DNA from: an uncultured Alphaproteobacteria bacterium
GTDB lineage: Bacteria; Pseudomonadota; Alphaproteobacteria; Rs-D84
DNA: 64,000 bases
Direction of reading: 5' to 3'
Assembly: GCA_949082785.1 (NCBI GenBank)
Contig: CARVLU010000004.1
Coordinates: forward strand, 23,371-87,370
The notes under the pieces were generated by a model. That model did not search any database. It was not told the DNA's origin and saw only the letters and a program-made list of their open reading frames with translations. This document shows positions 12,863 through 57,715 of this stretch, one piece after another; the stretch's first letter is position 1, and every line of letters begins with the position of its first letter. Position numbers and translations under genes: made by a program.

Positions 12863-13087
12863 GCGTTTGGTGAAAAAAATCCATGCCGGGTGCAACGGCA
12901 TGGCCCCCGCGGGAATCCGCCGCACGCGCCATAAAAAAATACCGCCAAAATAAACGGTCATTTATTTTAGTGGTATTTTTTCTTGCCCTGTGACCCCATT
13001 ATATCACCGTTTCCGCCGCCCCGTCAATCGGAAAGATTGCCCAATCCAAACCACCGGTTGGGCCCGGCAAATTAACGGGGGGAATTT

Positions 13088-13876
13088 ATGAAACACATCA
13101 TGATACGAATTGCCGGCGGCATGGTTGCGGCGTTTGGAATTATTGTCAATCGCGGTCATGCAGACGTGAATAATTGCACCACGTGGACGAACGAAACCGC
13201 GGGTAATTTAAATTACAAAAAATGTTCATACAACAGCGACGGCGGCGGGTATCGATACTTTGCCAGCTGGTCCAGTGTCCCCACCGGCAGCAATGCCTTG
13301 GCGCCGGCGCGCGAAACATGTATGAACGCCATGGGGACCATTGATTATCCGGGCTGCAAAAGTGGTCGCTGTAATCAGACCGGCATTGTCTGCGAAGATA
13401 CGGGGCTGCTGTTTTCTGTGGGCTGTTGCCTGGCCAGTCCGTCGTACGGCCAGCCCGGCGCATGCGCCACCAATGCCACGGGATGCCGCGTCCAGGTTAT
13501 GCCGATAGAGGCCGCAAATTACACCTACTATCGTTTTAACAGTTGTGCGAACGGTTATTACACCCCGACGAATTTGGGCGGGACATGCACCGGAACGTAT
13601 TCATCGTTGGAATCAATTACCGCCTGTTGCGCGCAATGTTCGGGATACCAAAACATCAACGGCCAATGGGTCACGGTCAACGGGGCGTCGGGATCAACAT
13701 CCGGCATATTTATCAATACGTCCACCACACCGGGCATGGGGATTACAACATGTTTGGCGTCAATGTCCCTGGGGCCCATCACCGCCAAAGACAACAGTGG
13801 CACGTACGATTTGATGGGATTTGTGGATGCAAACAACCCCGGTACATATACCAGTGGTTGTTATTATTCCGAATAA
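13088..13876 (+). CDS. secreted cysteine-rich protein (paralog family A)
   Basis: Signal peptide MKHIMIRIAGGMVAAFGIIVNRGHA; more than 20 Cys in CxxC / C...GYY arrangements; ends ...SGCYYSE. Ribosome-binding site ggggg 6 nt upstream. Confidence 0.6.
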   Translation: MKHIMIRIAGGMVAAFGIIVNRGHADVNNCTTWTNETAGNLNYKKCSYNSDGGGYRYFASWSSVPTGSNALAPARETCMNAMGTIDYPGCKSGRCNQTGIVCEDTGLLFSVGCCLASPSYGQPGACATNATGCRVQVMPIEAANYTYYRFNSCANGYYTPTNLGGTCTGTYSSLESITACCAQCSGYQNINGQWVTVNGASGSTSGIFINTSTTPGMGITTCLASMSLGPITAKDNSGTYDLMGFVDANNPGTYTSGCYYSE

Positions 13877-15496: not shown

Positions 15497-15601
15497 TTCC
15501 CTGGATTGCCACGCCACTGACGTGGCTCGCAATGACAAAGGAGATACAGTGCCAGGCAATTCAACACCCTTGTCATTGCGAGCCATCGGCGAAGCAATCC
15601 A
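15497..15601. repeat. MITE-like palindromic element, copy A (9 bp TIR ctggattgc/gcaatccag; internal ctcgcaatgacaa / ttgtcattgcgag arms)
   Basis: ctggattgccacgccactgacgtggctcgcaatgacaaagg...cccttgtcattgcgagccatcggcgaagcaatccag. A second copy is at 19818-19925. Confidence 0.55.
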
Positions 15602-15637
15602 GTAAAAAAAATCCCCACACCAATAAATTTAAATTCC

Positions 15638-15666
15638 TTGAAACTTCGCGCGGGGTGCGATATACT
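15638..15666 (+). promoter_or_regulatory. sigma70-type promoter TTGAAA-17-TATACT driving leader RNA copy 1
   Basis: ttgaaa(15638-43), 17 nt spacer, tatact(15661-66). The identical promoter is present in the inverted copy at 19754-19782. Confidence 0.5.
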
Positions 15667-15672
15667 GGATTC

Positions 15673-15848
15673 GCATTGGGAAACCGGTGTAGGCTTCAAA
15701 ACCTAATAGTACTGTCAGTGATGACATTAAACTATCTCCAACTTTAATCGGTTGGGGGGCTGTGAATATATTGAATAAACAGCGCTATTGTACTAATAGT
15801 TTTGAACCTCCAACCGCCCACAATGTTGTCGGGCGGTGTTTTTTTGCT
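15673..15848 (+). ncRNA. structured leader RNA, copy 1 (outer helix ttcaaaac..gtac/gtac..ttttgaa; long-range ggttggggg/cctccaacc pairing; intrinsic terminator ccgccc..gggcgg-U8)
   Basis: Predicted transcription start ~7 nt after the -10. GGTTGGGGGGCTGTGAATATATTGAATA...CCTCCAACC followed by a terminator ending 24 nt before the ATG at 15872. Family members are at 17244-17417 (-), 19578-19747 (-) and 54058-54160 (+). Confidence 0.45.
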
Positions 15849-15871
15849 TAAAAAAAATAAGGAGTCAAACT

Positions 15872-16099
15872 ATGGCAAAATTATTAATCGACGCAAACTA
15901 TTACGGCAGTGTGATGCGTCATGCGCGCGAACATTTGAAAATCAGTGTTTCCGACGCGGCAAAATTACTGAAAATGAACAAGAAAGATTATCAGAAATGT
16001 GAACGTGGCCAGGCGCTGTTTGATATCGGGATACTGCGCCGTTTCTTTCACGGGGCGTTTGCACTGCTGGTGATAAAACGCAGCCGCGATAATTTGTAG
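15872..16099 (+). CDS. small XRE/Cro-type HTH protein (75 aa), copy A
   Basis: MAKLLIDANYYGSVMRHAREHLKISVSDAAKLLKMNKKDYQKCERGQ is a helix-turn-helix. aaggag ribosome-binding site 8 nt upstream. A near-identical paralog is at 19334-19561 (-). Confidence 0.7.
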   Translation: MAKLLIDANYYGSVMRHAREHLKISVSDAAKLLKMNKKDYQKCERGQALFDIGILRRFFHGAFALLVIKRSRDNL

Positions 16100-16175
16100 C
16101 GCGCATCCGCGTGGCAATCCAGGAATAGGGCATTGTGCGCGTTATGGGATGCCAAAAGGGGACAAAGTGACATAA

Positions 16176-16443: not shown

Positions 16444-17229
16444 TTAGTCAGACAGGTGATACGTTTGGTCGTTGTATCGCACGTTGATTGATGCGGCCGC
16501 GCCCGACTTTAACACGCCATAGCATGTTTTGCCGCCATATCCAATGCGCAATGAAGGCGTGGTATATGCCACCGGATACAAATTAAACGTGCGCCCATTT
16601 CCGGTTTTTATTTTCCCAATTCCGGCCCCGCACAGGGGCACGCATGTGCCATCGTGATTGCCATAACCCGCGTCGCATTCCCATGGACAGTCGTTGGTCG
16701 GCGAACTGTCGGATTGTGCGGGCGTGCCGGCCCCGGTATAATGCGCATGTTCCGGCAGATTTGTGCATGGCCGGGCGTATCGGTACCACGTGTGCCATGT
16801 TGTCCCCACATATTGGGCCAAATAATATCCGGGGTTGGCCCGGTACCATAAAAATGCGGATTGGCCATTCCAGTAATCGGTGCCATTATACCAGCTTTCG
16901 ATATACAGTTCCCCATATGGGCTGGATATAAAGACACCTGCGAAACAATGTGCCGGCCAGATGGCCCCGTTTGTCGATGAACCGGGGTTCCACGACATCA
17001 GCCATGATTGTTGCGTCACCCGGTCCACCGGGTACAGTGTCGATACGAATCCGTACCAATCGGTCGTGTCCGTCGGACATGGATGTTGCGTGTCGTCACC
17101 GGGACAATAATACCCATCGACGCATTTTTCGCATGTGGTGCCGTTTAAATACATCCCCCCATCGCATACGCCCCATGCCACCGCCGGCATTCCCATCACG
17201 CACGCAATTGTCCATAAAACAAATTTCAT
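16444..17229 (-). CDS. secreted cysteine-rich protein (paralog family B)
   Basis: Signal peptide MKFVLWTIACVMGMPAVAWG from the ATG at 17229. Motifs CEKCVDGYYCPGDDTQHPCP and CPWECDAGYGNHDGTCVPLCG; W/Y-rich middle. Confidence 0.6.
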   Translation of the reverse strand: MKFVLWTIACVMGMPAVAWGVCDGGMYLNGTTCEKCVDGYYCPGDDTQHPCPTDTTDWYGFVSTLYPVDRVTQQSWLMSWNPGSSTNGAIWPAHCFAGVFISSPYGELYIESWYNGTDYWNGQSAFLWYRANPGYYLAQYVGTTWHTWYRYARPCTNLPEHAHYTGAGTPAQSDSSPTNDCPWECDAGYGNHDGTCVPLCGAGIGKIKTGNGRTFNLYPVAYTTPSLRIGYGGKTCYGVLKSGAAASINVRYNDQTYHLSD

Positions 17230-17243
17230 TGTTAACCCCGAAC

Positions 17244-17417
17244 AAAAAATAAAACCACCAGAAACGTTTCGGGTGGTTGGAGTTTTACAACAATTGAACG
17301 AATTGCGCGGTTTATTCAATGTATTCACCACACTCCAACCGACAAGATTGGAATGTTTATCGTCACACGGACGCGTTCAACGGGTTGTAAAGCCCCATGG
17401 CGCCATCGGCCACCACG
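17244..17417 (-). ncRNA. structured leader RNA, copy 2 (promoter GTGACA-17-TATAAT at 17424-17452; ggttggag/ctccaacc; terminator ccaccc..ggtgg-U)
   Basis: Minus-strand ggttggagtgtggtgaatacattgaataaaccgcgc...aaactccaaccacccgaaacgtttctggtggttttatttttt ending 15 nt before the start codon of the cysteine-rich gene. Confidence 0.45.
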
Positions 17418-17506
17418 GGGTATATTATAACGCAAGTTTTGAAAATTGTCACCCCATTATTTTGGGGCGATAAATGAAAAACGGGGGCGGGCCCCGTTTT
17501 GTTTTA

Positions 17507-19310: not shown

Positions 19311-19333
19311 TTGGTTGCATCCCAGGATTGGTG

Positions 19334-19561
19334 TTACAAATTGTCGCGGCTGCGTTTTATCACCAGCAGTGCAAACGCCCCGTGAAAGAAACGACGCAGT
19401 ATCCCGATATCAAACAGCGCCTGCCCACGTTCACATTTCTGATAATCTTTCTTGTTCATTTTCAATAATTTTGCCGCGTCGGCAACACTGATTTTCAAAT
19501 GTTCGCGCGCATGACGCATCACGCTGCCATAGTAATTGGCGTCGATTAATAATTTAGCCAT
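19334..19561 (-). CDS. small XRE/Cro-type HTH protein (75 aa), copy B
   Basis: MAKLLIDANYYGSVMRHAREHLKISVADAAKLL... has one amino-acid difference and several silent differences from the copy at 15872-16099. Confidence 0.7.
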   Translation of the reverse strand: MAKLLIDANYYGSVMRHAREHLKISVADAAKLLKMNKKDYQKCERGQALFDIGILRRFFHGAFALLVIKRSRDNL

Positions 19562-19577
19562 AGTTTTAACTCCTTTA

Positions 19578-19747
19578 TAAAAACACCACCCAAGACATTT
19601 GGGTGGTTGGAGGTTCAAAACTATTAGTACAATAGCGCTGTTTATTCAATATATTCACAGCCCCCCAACCGATTAAAGTTGGAGATAGTTTAATGTCATC
19701 ACTGACAGTACTATTAGGTTTTGAAGCCTACACCGGTTTCCCAATGC
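19578..19747 (-). ncRNA. structured leader RNA, copy 1b (inverted paralog of 15673-15848; promoter at 19754-19782)
   Basis: Same architecture as copy 1. The terminator ccaccc..gggtgg differs from ccgccc..gggcgg by a compensatory G-C to A-T change. Confidence 0.45.
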
Positions 19748-19817
19748 GAATCCAGTATATCGCACCCCGCGCGAAGTTTCAAGAATTATATCACGCCAGG
19801 TGTGTTGGTTTATTGAC

Positions 19818-19925
19818 TGGATTGCCGCGCCACTATCGTGGCTCGCAATGACAAGGGTGATAAAGTTCCTGGAAATTAGACACCATTGTCATTGCGAAGG
19901 AGTGAAACGACTGCGGCAATCCAGT
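19818..19925. repeat. MITE-like palindromic element, copy B
   Basis: ctggattgccgcgccactatcgtggctcgcaatgacaaggg...ccattgtcattgcgaaggag...gcaatccag, same TIR as copy A. Confidence 0.55.
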
Positions 19926-53285: not shown

Positions 53286-53894
53286 TTATTTTCCGCCGCC
53301 GGCTCTCAGACCCGTTTTGCGGTCCACCCAAACCTGTTCGTCGGCGATTTCCATCACCGGCATGTCGGACCGGCTGTCGGAATACGACCGCACGACCCGC
53401 GGAACGTATTTATGTTCCTTGGCCCATTCGTCCAGCGCAATAACCTTGTTCGCCCCCCAGCACAAGAAATCAAATTTCCACGGCGCACGCTTGTCCATAA
53501 CCGAACACATCACGGCGTCGAATTTGATATCACGCACCAATTGCGGCACCAAATAATCCGGCCCGGCAGAAATCAAAACAACCTTGCGTCCGGCACTGCG
53601 TTCGGCGTCCACCTGTTCGCGTGCCCAGCCAAAGCGTTCCCGGCGATGCTGCTTAATAAACGCGGGCGCAAATTTTTTAACCATTTCCGGCGTCATAAAT
53701 CGGCGCGCATTTTGCCGCCACCAAATGCCGTTTGGTTTAAAATATCTGCACATCATCGCCACCCCAATCAGCGGCAAAAACAGCCACGGACGGACCGAAT
53801 GGCGAAAACAGTATTTTGCGAATTCCATATTGCAGTCGCGCGCGGACAATGTCCCGTCGAAATCAAAAACTACAACGTCAACTTTTCTTAACAT
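53286..53894 (-). CDS. HAD-IB family hydrolase
   Basis: VVVFDFDGTLS (motif I DxDGT) from the ATG at 53894; 203 aa. Confidence 0.7.
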   Translation of the reverse strand: MLRKVDVVVFDFDGTLSARDCNMEFAKYCFRHSVRPWLFLPLIGVAMMCRYFKPNGIWWRQNARRFMTPEMVKKFAPAFIKQHRRERFGWAREQVDAERSAGRKVVLISAGPDYLVPQLVRDIKFDAVMCSVMDKRAPWKFDFLCWGANKVIALDEWAKEHKYVPRVVRSYSDSRSDMPVMEIADEQVWVDRKTGLRAGGGK

Positions 53895-54057
53895 GATATC
53901 CCTTTTGTTACTTTGCGGGGGCATTATAACAACGTTTTGCTTGCACCGCAAATTTTATATTGTTATGATGAAAATGTTATCGGGCGTTCCGATAACGGGG
54001 TTTAGCGACCCATTCTTGTACGCCGGCATACACGCGTCATGGTATGCGCTTTTTTCT

Positions 54058-54160
54058 ATCTCCAACTATTGGGTTGGAGGGTGTGGAAATATATTCGAAT
54101 ACCACCACTATTTACAAGATAGTCGCTAACCTCCAACCGCCTGTTTCTGGCGGTTTTTCG
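54058..54160 (+). ncRNA. structured leader RNA, copy 3 (outer helix ctatct/agatag; ggttggagg/cctccaacc; terminator ccgcc..ggcgg-U5)
   Basis: atctccaactattgggttggagggtgtggaaatatattcgaatacc...ctaacctccaaccgcctgtttctggcggttttt ends 28 nt before the ATG at 54189. A candidate promoter TTGCAC-17-TATGAT lies at 53941-53969. Confidence 0.45.
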
Positions 54161-54188
54161 TACACGAAAAACAAACGGAGGTTAGAAA

Positions 54189-54653
54189 ATGAAACATAAA
54201 TCAGTCTGGGTCGGGGTTGCGCTGTTGATACCGACCGGCATCCACGGGGCCACCTGGGTTACACCATCGTGTTGCAGCGAGAATACAATTGCGCCATCCA
54301 CCATCAAATGCAAAAGCGTCACCCGCAAAGTGGAATGCGGCGGCATAACAATCGTTGATTGCGGCGAATGCCAATCGGGATACAGCCCGTACCAGGCCAA
54401 AAAAACCGTTTGCAGCGGCGCCGCCCAACAAACCATCACATACCAGGATTGTATGCAAAACGTTGTCGTTTCGTGCAGCGTTGGTGAATACCAGGACGGA
54501 ATGCTGTGCGCCAAATGCCCGGACGGTGGAAAATCCGATATTGGCGCCACGTCCATCACCCAGTGTTATAAACCCAAATACGAAAACACGTTTTCCGATT
54601 CCACCGGCAGCGGGGTTACGGGGATGGATAATAACTGTTATTACACGAAATAA
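54189..54653 (+). CDS. secreted cysteine-rich protein (paralog family C)
   Basis: Signal peptide MKHKSVWVGVALLIPTGIHG; motifs CGECQSGYSPY and CAKCPDGG; ends NNCYYTK. ggagg ribosome-binding site. Confidence 0.6.
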   Translation: MKHKSVWVGVALLIPTGIHGATWVTPSCCSENTIAPSTIKCKSVTRKVECGGITIVDCGECQSGYSPYQAKKTVCSGAAQQTITYQDCMQNVVVSCSVGEYQDGMLCAKCPDGGKSDIGATSITQCYKPKYENTFSDSTGSGVTGMDNNCYYTK

Positions 54654-54682
54654 AAATGCCGGGATTTACCGGCATTTTTTTA
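54652..54682. terminator. bidirectional intrinsic terminator
   Basis: aaaaa tgccgggatttaccggca ttttttta. Confidence 0.6.
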
Positions 54683-57600
54683 ATTCTTGCGCTTTTTAGA
54701 CTTGCGTTTGAATTTCTGGCGCATCCCTTCCAACAAGAAGAACAGCGCCGGCGTCAATGTGAATGTCCAAATCAAACTGGCCAACATACCGCCAATCATA
54801 ACCGCGGCCATGGCGACCTTGGTTCCATCGGTACTCCACATCTGGGGCAACATCCCGGTGATAACCGCAATCGACGTCATCAGAACCATGTTCTTTTTTT
54901 CCGTCAATTCCGTCCACAGCGCCACGCGCGGCACCGCGCCATTGGCAATGCGGGCGATTGTCGGTTCCAACACCAGAATGTTGTTGTTCACAACCAACCC
55001 AACCAACATAACGAACGCCATCATCGCGCCGACATTCATCGTCGCCCCCGACAGGAACATGATAATAAACACGCCTGCGAAACTGGTGATAATCGATGTT
55101 GCAATGGTGAACGGATGAACCAAAGAATTCAAAATCGCCGCCAACAACATGAATGTCAATATGGTCGCCAGCAAGAACGCCTTGCCGATTTCACCGGCGG
55201 TTTCGCTTTGCGTTTCCGACATCCCGCCAAATTCGGCGTGGTAACCCGGTTTCCAATCCATCGCGTCCAATCCGGCCTGAATCTTTTGCTGGACCGGGCC
55301 CATGGTGGATTTACCGATATTGATATCGATTTCAGTAATACGCGTTTTGTTCAAACGGTTGATGTTTGGTGTTGCGGGCAAACTTTTGATTTCACCCAAT
55401 TGCGACAATGCAACCATCCCCTTTTGCGAATTGACATAGACGTTGTCAAACATCGACGCGTTTTTGAACGATTTGTCGAATTCCAAAACAATGGGATATT
55501 CTTCGCCGCGTTCTTTGTACTTGTAATCATCATTGCCGTACAGTGCCGCGCGCAGTGTTGCCCCCGCGTACGAATTCTGGACACCCCACGAATTCATTTT
55601 CGCCTGGTCGGGGATGAACTGAATTTCATCATTGGGTGATGGAACCGCCAGAACGGCCGTCTGAACTTCTGGGATTTGGTTAATCATATCCAGAATCTGG
55701 GCCGCGTACGCGTCACGCGTCGCATCATCATCGCCATAGATGTTCAACACCATATCCGATGTCTGGGACGAAGACATGCCCGCCCCGGCCTTTATCTGGA
55801 ATTCGGCATCGGGAATTTCCGACAGTTTCGGCAAAATCTGGCGCGCCAATTCTTTGTCGGATGTTCGGCGCGGATTACCCAAATCGGCCAATTCCAATTT
55901 AACGGTGATGTTTTGCAAACCGCGTTCCCCGATTTTGACGGTGGTCGCCGTGACATCCGGGAATTCTTTCAAAACATCTTCGACCTGGGCCGCGATAGAC
56001 ACAGATTTTTCATATGTCGCCCCCATCGGCGCACGCGCCGTGATGGTGATTTCGTTGGTGTCGGTTGCCGGCGAAAATTCGTTACCCACGAATTTCATCA
56101 GCATCGACGACGCAATCAGAATCGCAAACGCCCCCAACACCACGCGACCGGGATGGCGGAACTGATAATCGAACCACTGGCGCAGCGGGGTTTTATCCAC
56201 GACAACGGTCTGGGTGGTGTCGATTTTCTGGGGCTTGGGTTCACGAATGCGCAAGAATTGTGCAATCATCATCGGCGCCAGTGTGAACGAAAACATCAGC
56301 GACAACAATGTCAGATACACAACGGTCATCCCGAATTGCGACATGAACTGGCCGGCAATCCCGCCCATAAACGCCAACGGCAAGAACACAACGACGTTGG
56401 TCCCGACGCCCGCCAAAACGGAAACGGCAACCTTTTTCGTACCGTCAACCGCCGCGCGCTGCGGATTTTTCCCGTTGTTCATTTCCTGTAACGCGGATTC
56501 GATTAAGATAATCGCATTGGACACCAACGTCCCCAGTGCCGACGAATACGCCAGCAAAGTCATCGCATTAATGGTGAACCCACTGCCGTCCATGAAAAAG
56601 AATCCCGCAATCAACGACGCCGGAATCACCGCGCCCGCGATAATTGTGGACCGCCAGTTGCGTGTAAAGACCAGCAACACCAAAACCGTAAAGATAATCC
56701 CCAGGATGATGCCGTAAATGGTGCTGTACGTTTCTTCGGCGATGGATGTGGACGAATCCGACACAATCGACATTTCCGCACCCGGGAAACGGGATTGCAT
56801 ATCGGCCTGGAACGCGGGCAATTTTTCGCGCAGTGCGGACGAAATCTTAATCGCGTTACCGTCGTCTGCCTTGACCACGGATGCAACGACGACATCTTCA
56901 CCCTTGTACCGGGCGCCGTTTTCAATATCGCGCGCGGCATCCACCACGGTTGCAATATCGGAAATGCGGAATTTTTGCCCTTCCATTGTGACGATTTGCA
57001 AATTGCGAATGTCATCGACCGATGCGAATTCCCCGATAAAGCGTACGTTGGACGACGTCACCGCGCTTTCGATTTTACCGCCCGGCACGTTCAAATTCTT
57101 GCTGCCCAGCGCAGACACCACGTCCATAATCGTCACGCCGCGCGCCGCCATCAGTTCCGGGTCCATCTGGATACGAACCGCACGTTCGCGCCCACCGAAC
57201 ACGGACACACTGGCAACCCCGTTGATGGCGGTGATTTTATTCGACAGATTGTTGTCCACATATTCTTCCAAATCACGTGCATCGGCGCCGCGCAACACGA
57301 TATCGACAACCGATTCCTGTAACGGATTTAATTTTTCAACAACGGGCTGCTTTAACGCGTCGGGAAATTCGGACCCCAATGCGTCAATTTTGGTTTTGAC
57401 TTCGGCGGCCTTGTCATTAACATTGACCCCCAGGTTAAATTCAGCCATCACATACCCGCCGTTTTCGAACGCCTGGGACGTGATTTTTTTCAAACCGGCG
57501 ACTTCGGAAATGGCGTCTTCAGCTTTCTTAATGACCTGGGATTCGATTTCGGACGGCGCCGCACCCGGATACACAAAGTTCGCCGTCACCATCGGGAAAT

Positions 57601-57715
57601 CCAGCGACGGGGTTCGTTCAATGTTCATCTTTGGGAACGATACCAGCCCCAACACAACCCAGAACATAACAAACATCAGGGTTGTAATCGGTCTGCGTAC
57701 AAAAAAGTTTAACAT
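54680..57715 (-). CDS. RND (HAE1) multidrug efflux permease, AcrB/MexB-like
   Basis: 1011 aa, 12 TM with two large periplasmic loops; MLNFFVRRPITTLMFVMFWVVLGLVSF N-terminus typical of AcrB family. Confidence 0.9.
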   Translation of the reverse strand: MLNFFVRRPITTLMFVMFWVVLGLVSFPKMNIERTPSLDFPMVTANFVYPGAAPSEIESQVIKKAEDAISEVAGLKKITSQAFENGGYVMAEFNLGVNVNDKAAEVKTKIDALGSEFPDALKQPVVEKLNPLQESVVDIVLRGADARDLEEYVDNNLSNKITAINGVASVSVFGGRERAVRIQMDPELMAARGVTIMDVVSALGSKNLNVPGGKIESAVTSSNVRFIGEFASVDDIRNLQIVTMEGQKFRISDIATVVDAARDIENGARYKGEDVVVASVVKADDGNAIKISSALREKLPAFQADMQSRFPGAEMSIVSDSSTSIAEETYSTIYGIILGIIFTVLVLLVFTRNWRSTIIAGAVIPASLIAGFFFMDGSGFTINAMTLLAYSSALGTLVSNAIILIESALQEMNNGKNPQRAAVDGTKKVAVSVLAGVGTNVVVFLPLAFMGGIAGQFMSQFGMTVVYLTLLSLMFSFTLAPMMIAQFLRIREPKPQKIDTTQTVVVDKTPLRQWFDYQFRHPGRVVLGAFAILIASSMLMKFVGNEFSPATDTNEITITARAPMGATYEKSVSIAAQVEDVLKEFPDVTATTVKIGERGLQNITVKLELADLGNPRRTSDKELARQILPKLSEIPDAEFQIKAGAGMSSSQTSDMVLNIYGDDDATRDAYAAQILDMINQIPEVQTAVLAVPSPNDEIQFIPDQAKMNSWGVQNSYAGATLRAALYGNDDYKYKERGEEYPIVLEFDKSFKNASMFDNVYVNSQKGMVALSQLGEIKSLPATPNINRLNKTRITEIDINIGKSTMGPVQQKIQAGLDAMDWKPGYHAEFGGMSETQSETAGEIGKAFLLATILTFMLLAAILNSLVHPFTIATSIITSFAGVFIIMFLSGATMNVGAMMAFVMLVGLVVNNNILVLEPTIARIANGAVPRVALWTELTEKKNMVLMTSIAVITGMLPQMWSTDGTKVAMAAVMIGGMLASLIWTFTLTPALFFLLEGMRQKFKRKSKKRKN

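Follow-up and report, generated by a model that had tools for sequence, protein, structure and literature searches.

In the 64,000-nt stretch of DNA analysed here (the window; contig CARVLU010000004.1 of the uncultured Alphaproteobacteria assembly GCA_949082785.1, positions 23,371–87,370), a gene for a 154-aa cysteine-rich secreted protein, referred to below as the cargo, lies between a HAD hydrolase gene (53286–53894, minus strand) and an RND pump gene (54680–57715, minus strand), and is preceded by a sequence that recurs elsewhere in the window. What is this sequence, and what does it do for the gene behind it? A complete leader of ~185 nt was located on the plus strand at 53964–54158, comprising, in order, a −10 box, hairpins H1 and H2, a third hairpin, a competitor strand, a three-way junction of helices P1, P2 and P3, and an intrinsic terminator that overlaps P1. 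This leader is probably a cis-acting transcription-termination switch that is OFF by default. A preliminary description of the locus had reported a leader at 53941–54190, and the sequence that it quoted maps within this interval, to 54057–54160; the leader and both flanking genes were confirmed, and the terminator switch, a pseudoknot and a relation to the small RNA (sRNA) family sRNA-Xcc1 (Rfam RF02221) had not been recognised.

A dispersed leader family

The window was searched with the pattern GGTTGGNG-N50-75-YCCAACC, giving four sites (8 matches over the two strands) where chance predicts 0.05, so the leader is a repeat family and not a chance recurrence. A covariance model of the core likewise found exactly four copies. 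The copy in front of the cargo (the focal copy), previously numbered as the third, is the fourth of the four and carries the third distinct sequence among them. Two copies precede 75-aa genes of the XRE-type helix-turn-helix (HTH) class and two precede genes for cysteine-rich, signal-peptide-like proteins; the proposal that the leader stands before a third cysteine-rich gene was therefore not borne out, the third such gene of the window (13088–13876) being without a leader.

A wider search of a species-representative genome collection (pattern GGTTGGRG-N5-10-AATAYATT-N34-48-CTCCAACC) returned at least 119 further stretches and 124 distinct cores, often several per genome, giving more than 130 copies in all as a lower bound. 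Among the matches listed, hosts were nearly all gut or rumen metagenome-assembled genomes labelled Candidatus Enterousia, uncultured Alphaproteobacteria or 'Rickettsiales'. Candidatus Enterousia belongs to the order Rs-D84 and comprises uncultured gut bacteria with genomes below 1 Mb (PMC12306168). No paper on an Enterousia leader motif was found in the literature searched, and the family (the Enterousia family below) is apparently undescribed, so far as these searches show.

Copies consistently occupy the 5′ untranslated region of a same-strand gene. From the end of the core (P1) to the start of the open reading frame (ORF) the median distance is ~49 nt (~119 copies), which leaves little room for a separate promoter; the U-tract of the focal copy runs to 54158 and the Shine–Dalgarno (SD) sequence begins at 54177. 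The largest group of downstream proteins was a single secreted cysteine-rich family of 31 members, including both cysteine-rich cargos of the window, followed by two small XRE-type HTH families of 20 and 13 members (HTH_3 and HTH_31 matches), several other families with signal-peptide-like N-termini, and singletons. Pfam searches of the leader-associated cargo proteins gave only sub-threshold cysteine-rich-repeat matches for the secreted ones.

Two or three leaders stand in tandem before a single gene at four loci (L057 2806–3045, L114 452–763, L085 2362–2928, L125 5207–5475); the tandem copies of L057 are without H2 and competitor, with an apparent start at P1 as in canonical sRNA-Xcc1. Three IMG/VR contigs classed as viral (L126, L127, L128) bear Enterousia-type leaders, one of them complete and of the same layout (L126 12000–13164). 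The complete leader precedes a gene for a 316-aa product whose N-terminus is signal-peptide-like, and this gene adjoins ORFs resembling, by eye, a DNA methyltransferase and a PLD-family protein.

A three-way junction locked by a pseudoknot

Alignment of full leaders with MAFFT and RNAalifold resolved no more than P1 and a portion of the terminator, with P2 and P3 misaligned, and was replaced by an Infernal alignment of 117 matches on an 11-sequence, equal-length seed with explicit structure. This alignment supported a three-way junction of P1 (9 bp), P2 (5 bp, closing a loop, L2, of 15–16 nt) and P3 (6 bp), with 97.3% of cells paired, both-side changes in 14 of the 20 pairs, and 264 compensated cells against 71 ± 11.5 after shuffling (0 of 500 shuffles as high) and 11–27 in partner-slid controls. 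A less biased consensus of L2, taken from copies found by the covariance model and not by the pattern, was GAAUA-N3-4-GAAUA(A/C), a range into which the focal L2 fits.

Upstream of the junction the family has a common layout of a TATAAT-like −10 box, ~6–8 nt, H1 (variable in sequence), H2 (GGGG, 8-nt loop, CCC), a small hairpin P0 (absent in a subclass) with an A-rich linker, and the competitor. The H2 loop was found to be complementary to J3/1, the strand between P3 and P1, forming a previously unnoticed pseudoknot. Of 125 copies, 114 had, upstream, a perfect Watson–Crick complement of at least 7 nt to their own J3/1; with swapped partners the figure was 3.2%, a control that guards against the bias of picking the register by best complement. 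The complement was located ~50–59 nt before P1 (~30–39 nt in the P0-less subclass). The first analysis, over a narrower interval, counted 54 different paired 7-mers. In fixed-register extracts the seven central pairs were 91–100% paired (five at 100%) and used all four Watson–Crick pair types, with 176 compensated cells against 37.3 ± 4.9 shuffled (0 of 500) and a covariation score of 0.712 against 0.157 shuffled and at most 0.144 in slid controls. The pseudoknot is thereby shown to be H-type and to leave J3/1 fully paired, the three-way junction becoming a four-helix junction. A role for it as an 'address code' for the downstream gene family was considered and rejected, as no strict association was seen; since its sequence does not track the gene family, it behaves as an ordinary co-varying helix.

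A probable termination switch at P1

The P1 5′ strand (GGUUGGAG) has two mutually exclusive partners, the upstream competitor (CUCCAAC) and the P1 3′ strand (CUCCAACC). In minimum free energy (MFE) folds of all four window copies it pairs with the competitor, and the terminator hairpin with its U-run forms; forcing P1 truncates the terminator in the folds. For the focal copy, in which the terminator 5′ arm and the P1 3′ strand have 4 nt in common (54135–38), the competitor/terminator (OFF, MFE) fold was calculated at −31.4 kcal/mol and the P1-forced fold at −26.0 kcal/mol. Across the family, the competitor helix was 7–10 bp long in 108 of 124 copies (loop mostly 3–8 nt), the terminator 5′ arm overlapped the P1 3′ strand by at least 4 nt in 108/122, and the OFF fold was favoured in 105/125 (median −4.3 kcal/mol), so that an intrinsic terminator is mutually exclusive with a conserved alternative structure.

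Three independent P1 variants carry matching changes in the P1 3′ strand and the competitor alike: L017 (P1 5′ GGCAGGAGG, P1 3′ CCUCCUGCC, competitor CCUUCUGCC), L025 (P1 5′ UGCAGGAGG, P1 3′ CCUCCUGCC, competitor CCUUCUGC) and L036 (P1 5′ GUCAGGAGG, P1 3′ CCUCCUGAC, competitor CUCCUGAC). Because these deviant copies change both partners to match, both alternative helices are under selection, as in a switch. Covariation is decisive for the junction, the pseudoknot, and both alternative pairings of the P1 5′ strand.

In the proposed mechanism, transcription would start ~6–8 nt after TATGAT, the competitor hairpin would form first, and the terminator would fire by default ~30 nt before the start codon, releasing a short RNA of ~180 nt. 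A stabilised P1/junction/pseudoknot fold would disable the terminator and permit readthrough into the cargo, making the leader an ON switch. The stabilising signal would most likely act at the conserved L2 (GAAUA-N3-4-GAAUA) and the junction. Folding kinetics could provide this input, as could a small ligand or a factor, protein or RNA, bound at the GAAUA repeats or the A-rich linker.

A promoter and an upstream hairpin had been described as specific to the focal copy. Of the promoter, only the −35 TTGCAC is local, while TATGAT stands at the family-typical place; the hairpin is the family-wide H1, other copies having a hairpin of variable sequence at the same position. A consensus promoter scanner missed 53941–53969, where TTGCAC matches the −35 consensus at only 3 of 6 positions, and an extended −10, TGnTATGAT, is the better reading of the promoter. 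A simple terminator scanner missed 54135–54158, its stem extension consuming the Ts. The hairpin at the P0 position is longer than usual and terminator-like, other copies having a 4–5-bp hairpin and an A-rich linker there.

Several points weigh against the switch. The OFF/ON energy comparison was computed without the pseudoknot, and the near-invariance of P1 and part of L2 (AAUAYAUU) is partly ascertainment, these bases being fixed by the search pattern. The focal copy is the lowest-scoring member, with a 1-nt insertion in L2 and a weak −35, and has a U-run hairpin (54026–54055) before the competitor; this copy may be leaky, doubly attenuated or decaying. Transcription start, termination and readthrough are all predicted, and the downstream XRE-HTH regulators and secreted cysteine-rich proteins point to no metabolite. 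The terminated leader could additionally act in trans, by analogy with the related sRNA-Xcc1, which accumulates as a transcript of 88 nt and has been regarded as trans-acting (PMC2996969).

The last point leads to a different view, that the element is an independent trans-acting sRNA gene like sRNA-Xcc1, the terminator ending the sRNA and the cargo being a neighbour or transcribed by incidental readthrough. The closest Rfam family is indeed classed as Gene/sRNA, its Xanthomonas transcript having been seen on a Northern blot (PMC2996969), a fold that terminates by default should let a short RNA accumulate, and the near-identical P1 strands of many copies could allow cross-talk. The tight spacing to the same-strand start (median 49 nt, with about 20–30 nt from U-tract to SD) speaks against it, as does the three-way competitor/P1/terminator covariation, which has no role in a plain sRNA gene, and the rest of the window yielded no targets complementary to L2 or J3/1. 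An sRNA gene, which would be compatible with a cis role, is unlikely to be the whole account.

The alternating pairings of the cis-acting switch also have the 1:2/2:3/3:4 topology of trp attenuators, in which a ribosome on a short ORF over the competitor would free the P1 5′ strand, and in sister copy A an 8-codon ORF ends between competitor and P1. An ATG ORF of any kind reached the competitor in no more than 64 of the 125 copies, with all three frames in use, and only 7 of those 64 (7/125) had an SD-like sequence before it. With no consistent frame and so few SD-preceded ORFs, a leader-peptide attenuator is effectively refuted and merits hardly any credence.

As a separate observation, in the focal copy J3/1 and the P1 3′ strand together (CUAACCUCC, 54122–54134) are perfectly complementary to the cargo SD region (GGAGGUUAG, 54177–54185). 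GGAGG, on the 5′ strand, and CCUCC both occur in P1, whose 3′ strand, like the competitor, resembles the 16S anti-SD; this apparent mimicry is inseparable from the general rule that any strong SD complements CCUCC.

Table 1. Positions of the focal leader, its cargo and the sister copies in the window.
Feature	Position	Strand	Details
Putative promoter	53941–53969	+	weak −35 TTGCAC 53941–46, TG 53961–62, −10 TATGAT 53964–69
H1 hairpin	53976–53996	+	8 bp, GUUAUCGG-gcgu-UCCGAUAAC; 5′-terminal hairpin of the leader
H2 hairpin	53997–54011	+	GGGG-UUUAGCGA-CCC; family-wide GGGG-loop-CCC form; complementary to J3/1
Pseudoknot 5′ strand	54002–54009	+	UUAGCGAC (H2 loop and stem bases); pairs with J3/1 strand
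Hairpin at P0 position	54026–54055	+	GCAUAC...GUAUGC 54026–54047, then U-run 54050–55
Competitor (anti-antiterminator)	54060–54067	+	CUCCAACU; pairs with P1 5′ strand 54072–54079 in the MFE fold
Three-way-junction core	54072–54138	+	fold, covariation and covariance-model match of 52.5 bits; most divergent of the four
P1	54072–80/54130–38	+	
P2	54081–86/54102–06	+	loop L2 54087–54101, AAAUAUAUUCGAAUA
P3	54107–13/54117–23	+	
Pseudoknot 3′ strand	54122–54129	+	GUCGCUAA; J3/1 is 54124–29
Intrinsic terminator	54135–54158	+	AACCGCC-ugu uucu-GGCGGUU and Us, from folds
SD and cargo ORF	54177–54653	+	SD GGAGG 54177–81; ORF 54189–54653, 154 aa, 13 Cys (8.4%)
Bidirectional terminator	54652–54679		11 pairs on both strands; serves cargo (+) and RND (−)
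Sister copy A, core	15750–15815	+	88.3 bits
Sister copy A, full leader	15630–15842	+	precedes 75-aa XRE-HTH gene 15872–16099
Sister copy B, core	17275–17340	−	87.1 bits
Sister copy B, full leader	17250–17440	−	precedes 261-aa Cys-rich secreted-protein gene 16444–17229
Sister copy A′, core	19605–19670	−	88.3 bits
Sister copy A′, full leader	19578–19790	−	inverted duplicate of A; precedes 75-aa XRE-HTH gene ending at 19334

Relation to sRNA-Xcc1

An Rfam scan of the window at the gathering threshold returned tRNAs only, and the focal copy gave no RF02221 match even at E ≤ 10. An isrK-like match at 53976–54054 (19 bits, E 0.05) was set aside as a generic hairpin-hairpin-terminator resemblance of H1, H2 and P0. 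Sister copy A aligned end to end with RF02221 (29.3 bits, E 0.001–0.003, gathering threshold 53), with the same P1/P2/P3 layout, a J3/1 of UUUUGA and an RCC tail, and among eight many-copy loci compared with this model a single copy (L007, 35.1 bits) matched at E ≤ 1. By score the best Enterousia-family copies (29–35 bits) thus stay below the 53 bits of RF02221; by architecture they have its three-way junction, ~6-nt J3/1 and RCC after P1; and they show neither the RNA start at P1 (~88-nt RNA) nor the downstream J3/1-complementary hairpin, their −10 box lying ~100 nt ahead of P1. The Enterousia family is thus a distant, sub-threshold relative of sRNA-Xcc1.

sRNA-Xcc1 was first found in a Xanthomonas campestris integron cassette, is common on prophages and islands, and is known as an 88-nt RNA from a Northern blot in Xanthomonas, treated as trans-acting with its mechanism unknown and with target predictions only (PMC2996969; PMC12189769). 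In integron cassettes it has been noted ahead of symE (bioRxiv 10.1101/2025.06.18.660453), and in APSE phage ahead of an ORF6N gene (bioRxiv 10.1101/2020.03.17.996009). No cis role for it was proposed in the papers found.

A pattern for canonical sRNA-Xcc1 gave 64 stretches on viral contigs (L129–L192, IMG/VR), of which the phage copies tested scored 64–73 bits as a positive control; C4 antisense RNAs were present on the same contigs. In these copies the RNA begins at P1, right behind a promoter-like site, P2 bears an additional hairpin, J3/1 is of the type seen in the Enterousia family (GUUCUUAACCUCC, GUUUCGAACCUCC), and RCC follows P1 in 47 of 53. The loop of a downstream hairpin is perfectly complementary to J3/1 over 7–8 co-varying nt in 45 of 53 copies (control mostly 4 nt), and a gene starts 61–68 nt downstream, its product having an N-terminus that is typically, by eye, of the Bro-N, KilA-N or Rha antirepressor type; examples on prophage contigs are L146 3671–3757 and L143 6262–6346. 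This arrangement suggests a cis-regulatory or c4-like role for canonical sRNA-Xcc1, which is directly testable because the copies stand at a fixed distance from the gene and have a co-varying J3/1–loop pairing.

Point by point, the two families share a 9–10-bp P1 of G-rich and C-rich strands (GGCCGGGAGG vs GGUUGGAGG), P3, RCC after P1, a P2 with purine-rich unpaired strands AAUAYA...GAAnAA, a 6–7-nt J3/1 of type GUUCUUAAC or GUUUCGAAC that pairs with a hairpin loop through a co-varying 7–8-bp helix, a downstream gene in the same orientation, and a location in mobile or accessory DNA. They differ by a permutation, the pseudoknot partner lying upstream (H2) in the Enterousia family and downstream in canonical sRNA-Xcc1; a downstream complement of J3/1 is absent in the Enterousia family, where the length distribution equals the control. 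The Enterousia family also differs in its ~90–100 nt of conserved 5′ leader (H1, H2, P0, competitor) before P1, in a P2 without the inserted hairpin, in its expression platform of competitor and intrinsic terminator switch, and in its cargo of XRE-HTH and secreted cysteine-rich proteins in place of Bro-N/KilA-N/Rha antirepressors or symE.

Candidate inputs and significance

If the leader is an ON switch, what turns it on? A metabolite- or ion-sensing riboswitch, in which a ligand in a junction/L2/pseudoknot pocket turns transcription ON, is a specific version of the switch model and a possible but doubtful one. The combination of a conserved pseudoknotted core with a variable platform (terminator and competitor here, an RBS-near hairpin, close to the ribosome-binding site, in phage sRNA-Xcc1), the tandem copies at L057, L114, L085 and L125, the highly conserved unpaired nucleotides of L2 and the default-OFF design are all in keeping with it. 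The downstream regulators, antirepressors and surface proteins, on the other hand, make up no coherent metabolic or transport set, no ligand can be read from the gene set, and the pseudoknotted junction has almost no unpaired nucleotides.

The input may instead be a protein or RNA factor, a host factor binding the GAAUA half-sites or a tRNA-like four-helix junction with 3′ RCC as an antiterminator; this is a tentative proposal that deserves attention without being the expected outcome. Such a factor could be an RNA-binding protein, an Hfq/ProQ-type chaperone that binds the A-rich linker or, by the example of phage c4/P4 CI RNAs, RNase P. In its favour, GAAUA-N3-4-GAAUA makes L2 a direct repeat, P0 is followed by an A-rich linker, both families have RCC behind P1, canonical sRNA-Xcc1 on prophage contigs stands before antirepressor genes, with C4 RNAs nearby, and reduced genomes with many copies would fit one global factor. 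Against such a factor, no candidate protein is consistently adjacent, the RCC of the Enterousia family is also explained by its GC-rich terminator arm, and canonical sRNA-Xcc1 begins at P1 and so needs no 5′ processing.

A broader and rather speculative possibility is that the Enterousia family and canonical sRNA-Xcc1 form one Xcc1 superfamily, an orphan class of sensor RNAs and not trans-acting sRNAs, whose pseudoknot-locked four-helix junction of tRNA-like topology with 3′ RCC would read a small-molecule or host-factor signal and gate accessory genes through interchangeable expression platforms. Its targets would then be antirepressors and symE in phages, and dozens of XRE regulators and surface-protein genes in reduced-genome gut symbionts, for which the RNA may constitute a major means of regulation. 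Such a reading matters since sRNA-Xcc1 is annotated as a trans-acting sRNA in many pathogen, integron and prophage genomes. The Enterousia leader itself, with covariation for five helices and a two-state switch, is among the better-supported structured RNAs outside Rfam 15; it fronts small regulators and secreted, eukaryote-like cysteine-rich proteins, plausible host- or partner-interaction factors, and its four copies in 64 kb suggest a global RNA-based layer of control.

A portable promoter-leader-gene-terminator cassette

Synteny was compared among relatives, as had been proposed together with the claim that leader, gene and terminator travel as a unit. Where the HAD protein is 90% identical (L122–L124), the same leader (52.5 bits) and a 154–155-aa gene occupy the same place; at 80% (L125), 75% (L068) and 64% (L110) identity RND and HAD abut, the interval of ~70, ~195 and ~150 nt, respectively, holding a terminator only. 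The claim is upheld by this comparison, which points to an insertion or replacement specific to the lineage. Occupied and empty sites are homologous up to window position ~53961 (...CCGCAAATTTTAT); this stretch is the HAD promoter block (minus strand, TTGCGG-17-TATAAT), and the relatives continue from it directly into the RND terminator. The −35 TTGCAC thus lies in ancestral DNA overlapping the HAD promoter and the −10 TATGAT in inserted DNA. The bidirectional terminator of the earlier account was found again at 54652–54679 and is unlike the RND terminator of the empty sites (L068, L110, L125) in sequence. Because homology stops where it does, the cassette is taken to span about 53962–54680, with a left edge at about 53962, and to have brought its own −10 (TGnTATGAT) and a terminator differing from the ancestral one. 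The promoter-leader-gene-terminator segment behaves as a portable cassette, inserted between RND and HAD in the recent ancestry of the species.

The relatives have other leader-gene cassettes a few hundred bases away, between HAD/p102 and RmuC (leaders at L068 5112–5177, L110 3794–3863, and two in tandem at L125 5207–5272 and 5408–5475), and since the empty-site genomes have different cassettes nearby, the neighbourhood is a hotspot. For genome evolution, this means that promoter-leader-gene-terminator modules move as units in this lineage.

Mobility raises the question of whether the repeat acts as DNA, as a dispersed repeat, a recombination or attC-like site, a protein operator or an embedded promoter (TTGAAT...TATAGT). 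It is dispersed, multi-copy and tied to presence/absence cassettes, sRNA-Xcc1 is present in integron cassettes, and L2 and the P3 3′ strand resemble −35/−10 hexamers in some copies. The covariation, however, is of the RNA type and includes G-U pairs, the orientation towards genes is strand-specific, and the spacing from TTGAAT to the '−10' is not fixed, running from 17 to over 22 nt as the P3 loop changes in length. No attC-like core sites (R″/R′) were seen by eye at the cassette ends, with no dedicated attC model search, and no integrase-like product was noticed by eye in the ORF lists around the copies, with no systematic search; by this inspection, the cassette lacks the attC and integrase of an integron gene cassette. 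A DNA-level function is accordingly highly improbable. The embedded promoter was also rejected on inspection, for its variable spacing and because a transcript from it would terminate at once.

Cargo protein and other repeats in the window

The cargo protein has a signal-peptide-like N-terminus and cysteine-rich repeats of the C-x2-C-P-x-G type, matched DUF7630 only, below threshold, in Pfam, and clusters with 30 other leader-associated secreted cysteine-rich proteins. Together with the products of 16444–17229 and 13088–13876, it belongs to a set of secreted proteins with eukaryote-like cysteine-rich repeats and weak, sub-threshold Pfam matches of TNFR/ELAPOR1-like and DUF7630 type. The exact cargo sequence recurs in public assemblies, with 431 blocks on record, which marks the organism as common.

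Upstream of the leaderless gene 13088–13876, the string CCAAUCCAAACC-acc-GGUUGGG at 13040–13065 looks like a competitor/P1-5′ hairpin that no junction follows, and by its sequence may be the remnant of a decayed leader. The two leader and XRE-HTH cassettes (15630–16108 and 19325–19790) are arms of a ~480-bp inverted duplication, 94–98% identical and ~3.2 kb apart, enclosing the copy B cassette, a tRNA and several housekeeping-looking ORFs; the arms could mediate inversion of the enclosed segment. Just 5′ of both cassettes lies an 81-nt repeat (15501–15581 and 19817–19897, 85% identical; CTGGATTGCCRCGCCACT..GTGGCTCGCAATGACAA...TTGTCATTGCGA) with internal inverted repeats and the appearance of a REP-type or palindromic dispersed element, and 'attgcgag...ggcaatccag'-like strings precede leaders in other genomes, e.g. 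L007, L029, L060 and L067.

Comparison with other known systems

Beyond sRNA-Xcc1, three kinds of known leader resemble the putative Enterousia switch. The P1/P7 c4 antisense RNA (RF01695) and the P4 CI RNA are likewise small junction-type RNAs from an operon leader, with short co-varying complementary segments within one leader. In P4, the segment seqB has alternative partners upstream and downstream (seqA, seqC), causing premature termination. The Enterousia segments differ in forming an intramolecular pseudoknot and a P1/competitor pair in place of loop-to-RBS antisense pairing, and no antirepressor operon stands at the leader. Rfam scans gave no C4 match in the window, and no J3/1 or L2 complement was found downstream of the focal copy, which by these features lies outside the c4/P4 CI class.

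ON-type riboswitches and antiterminators (adenine pbuE/ydhL, T-box, PyrR, LicT-type) share a sensor whose closing helix competes with a terminator, an anti-antiterminator layer, a default-OFF state and tandem arrangements; the Enterousia gene set, unlike theirs, is not metabolic, and no Rfam riboswitch or leader matched the Enterousia leader in sequence or structure in the Rfam scans. Attenuators of the trp type share the four-segment logic of alternative 1:2, 2:3 and 3:4 hairpins; the Enterousia leader, unlike them, is without a conserved leader ORF, and its 2:3 helix encloses a conserved pseudoknotted junction.

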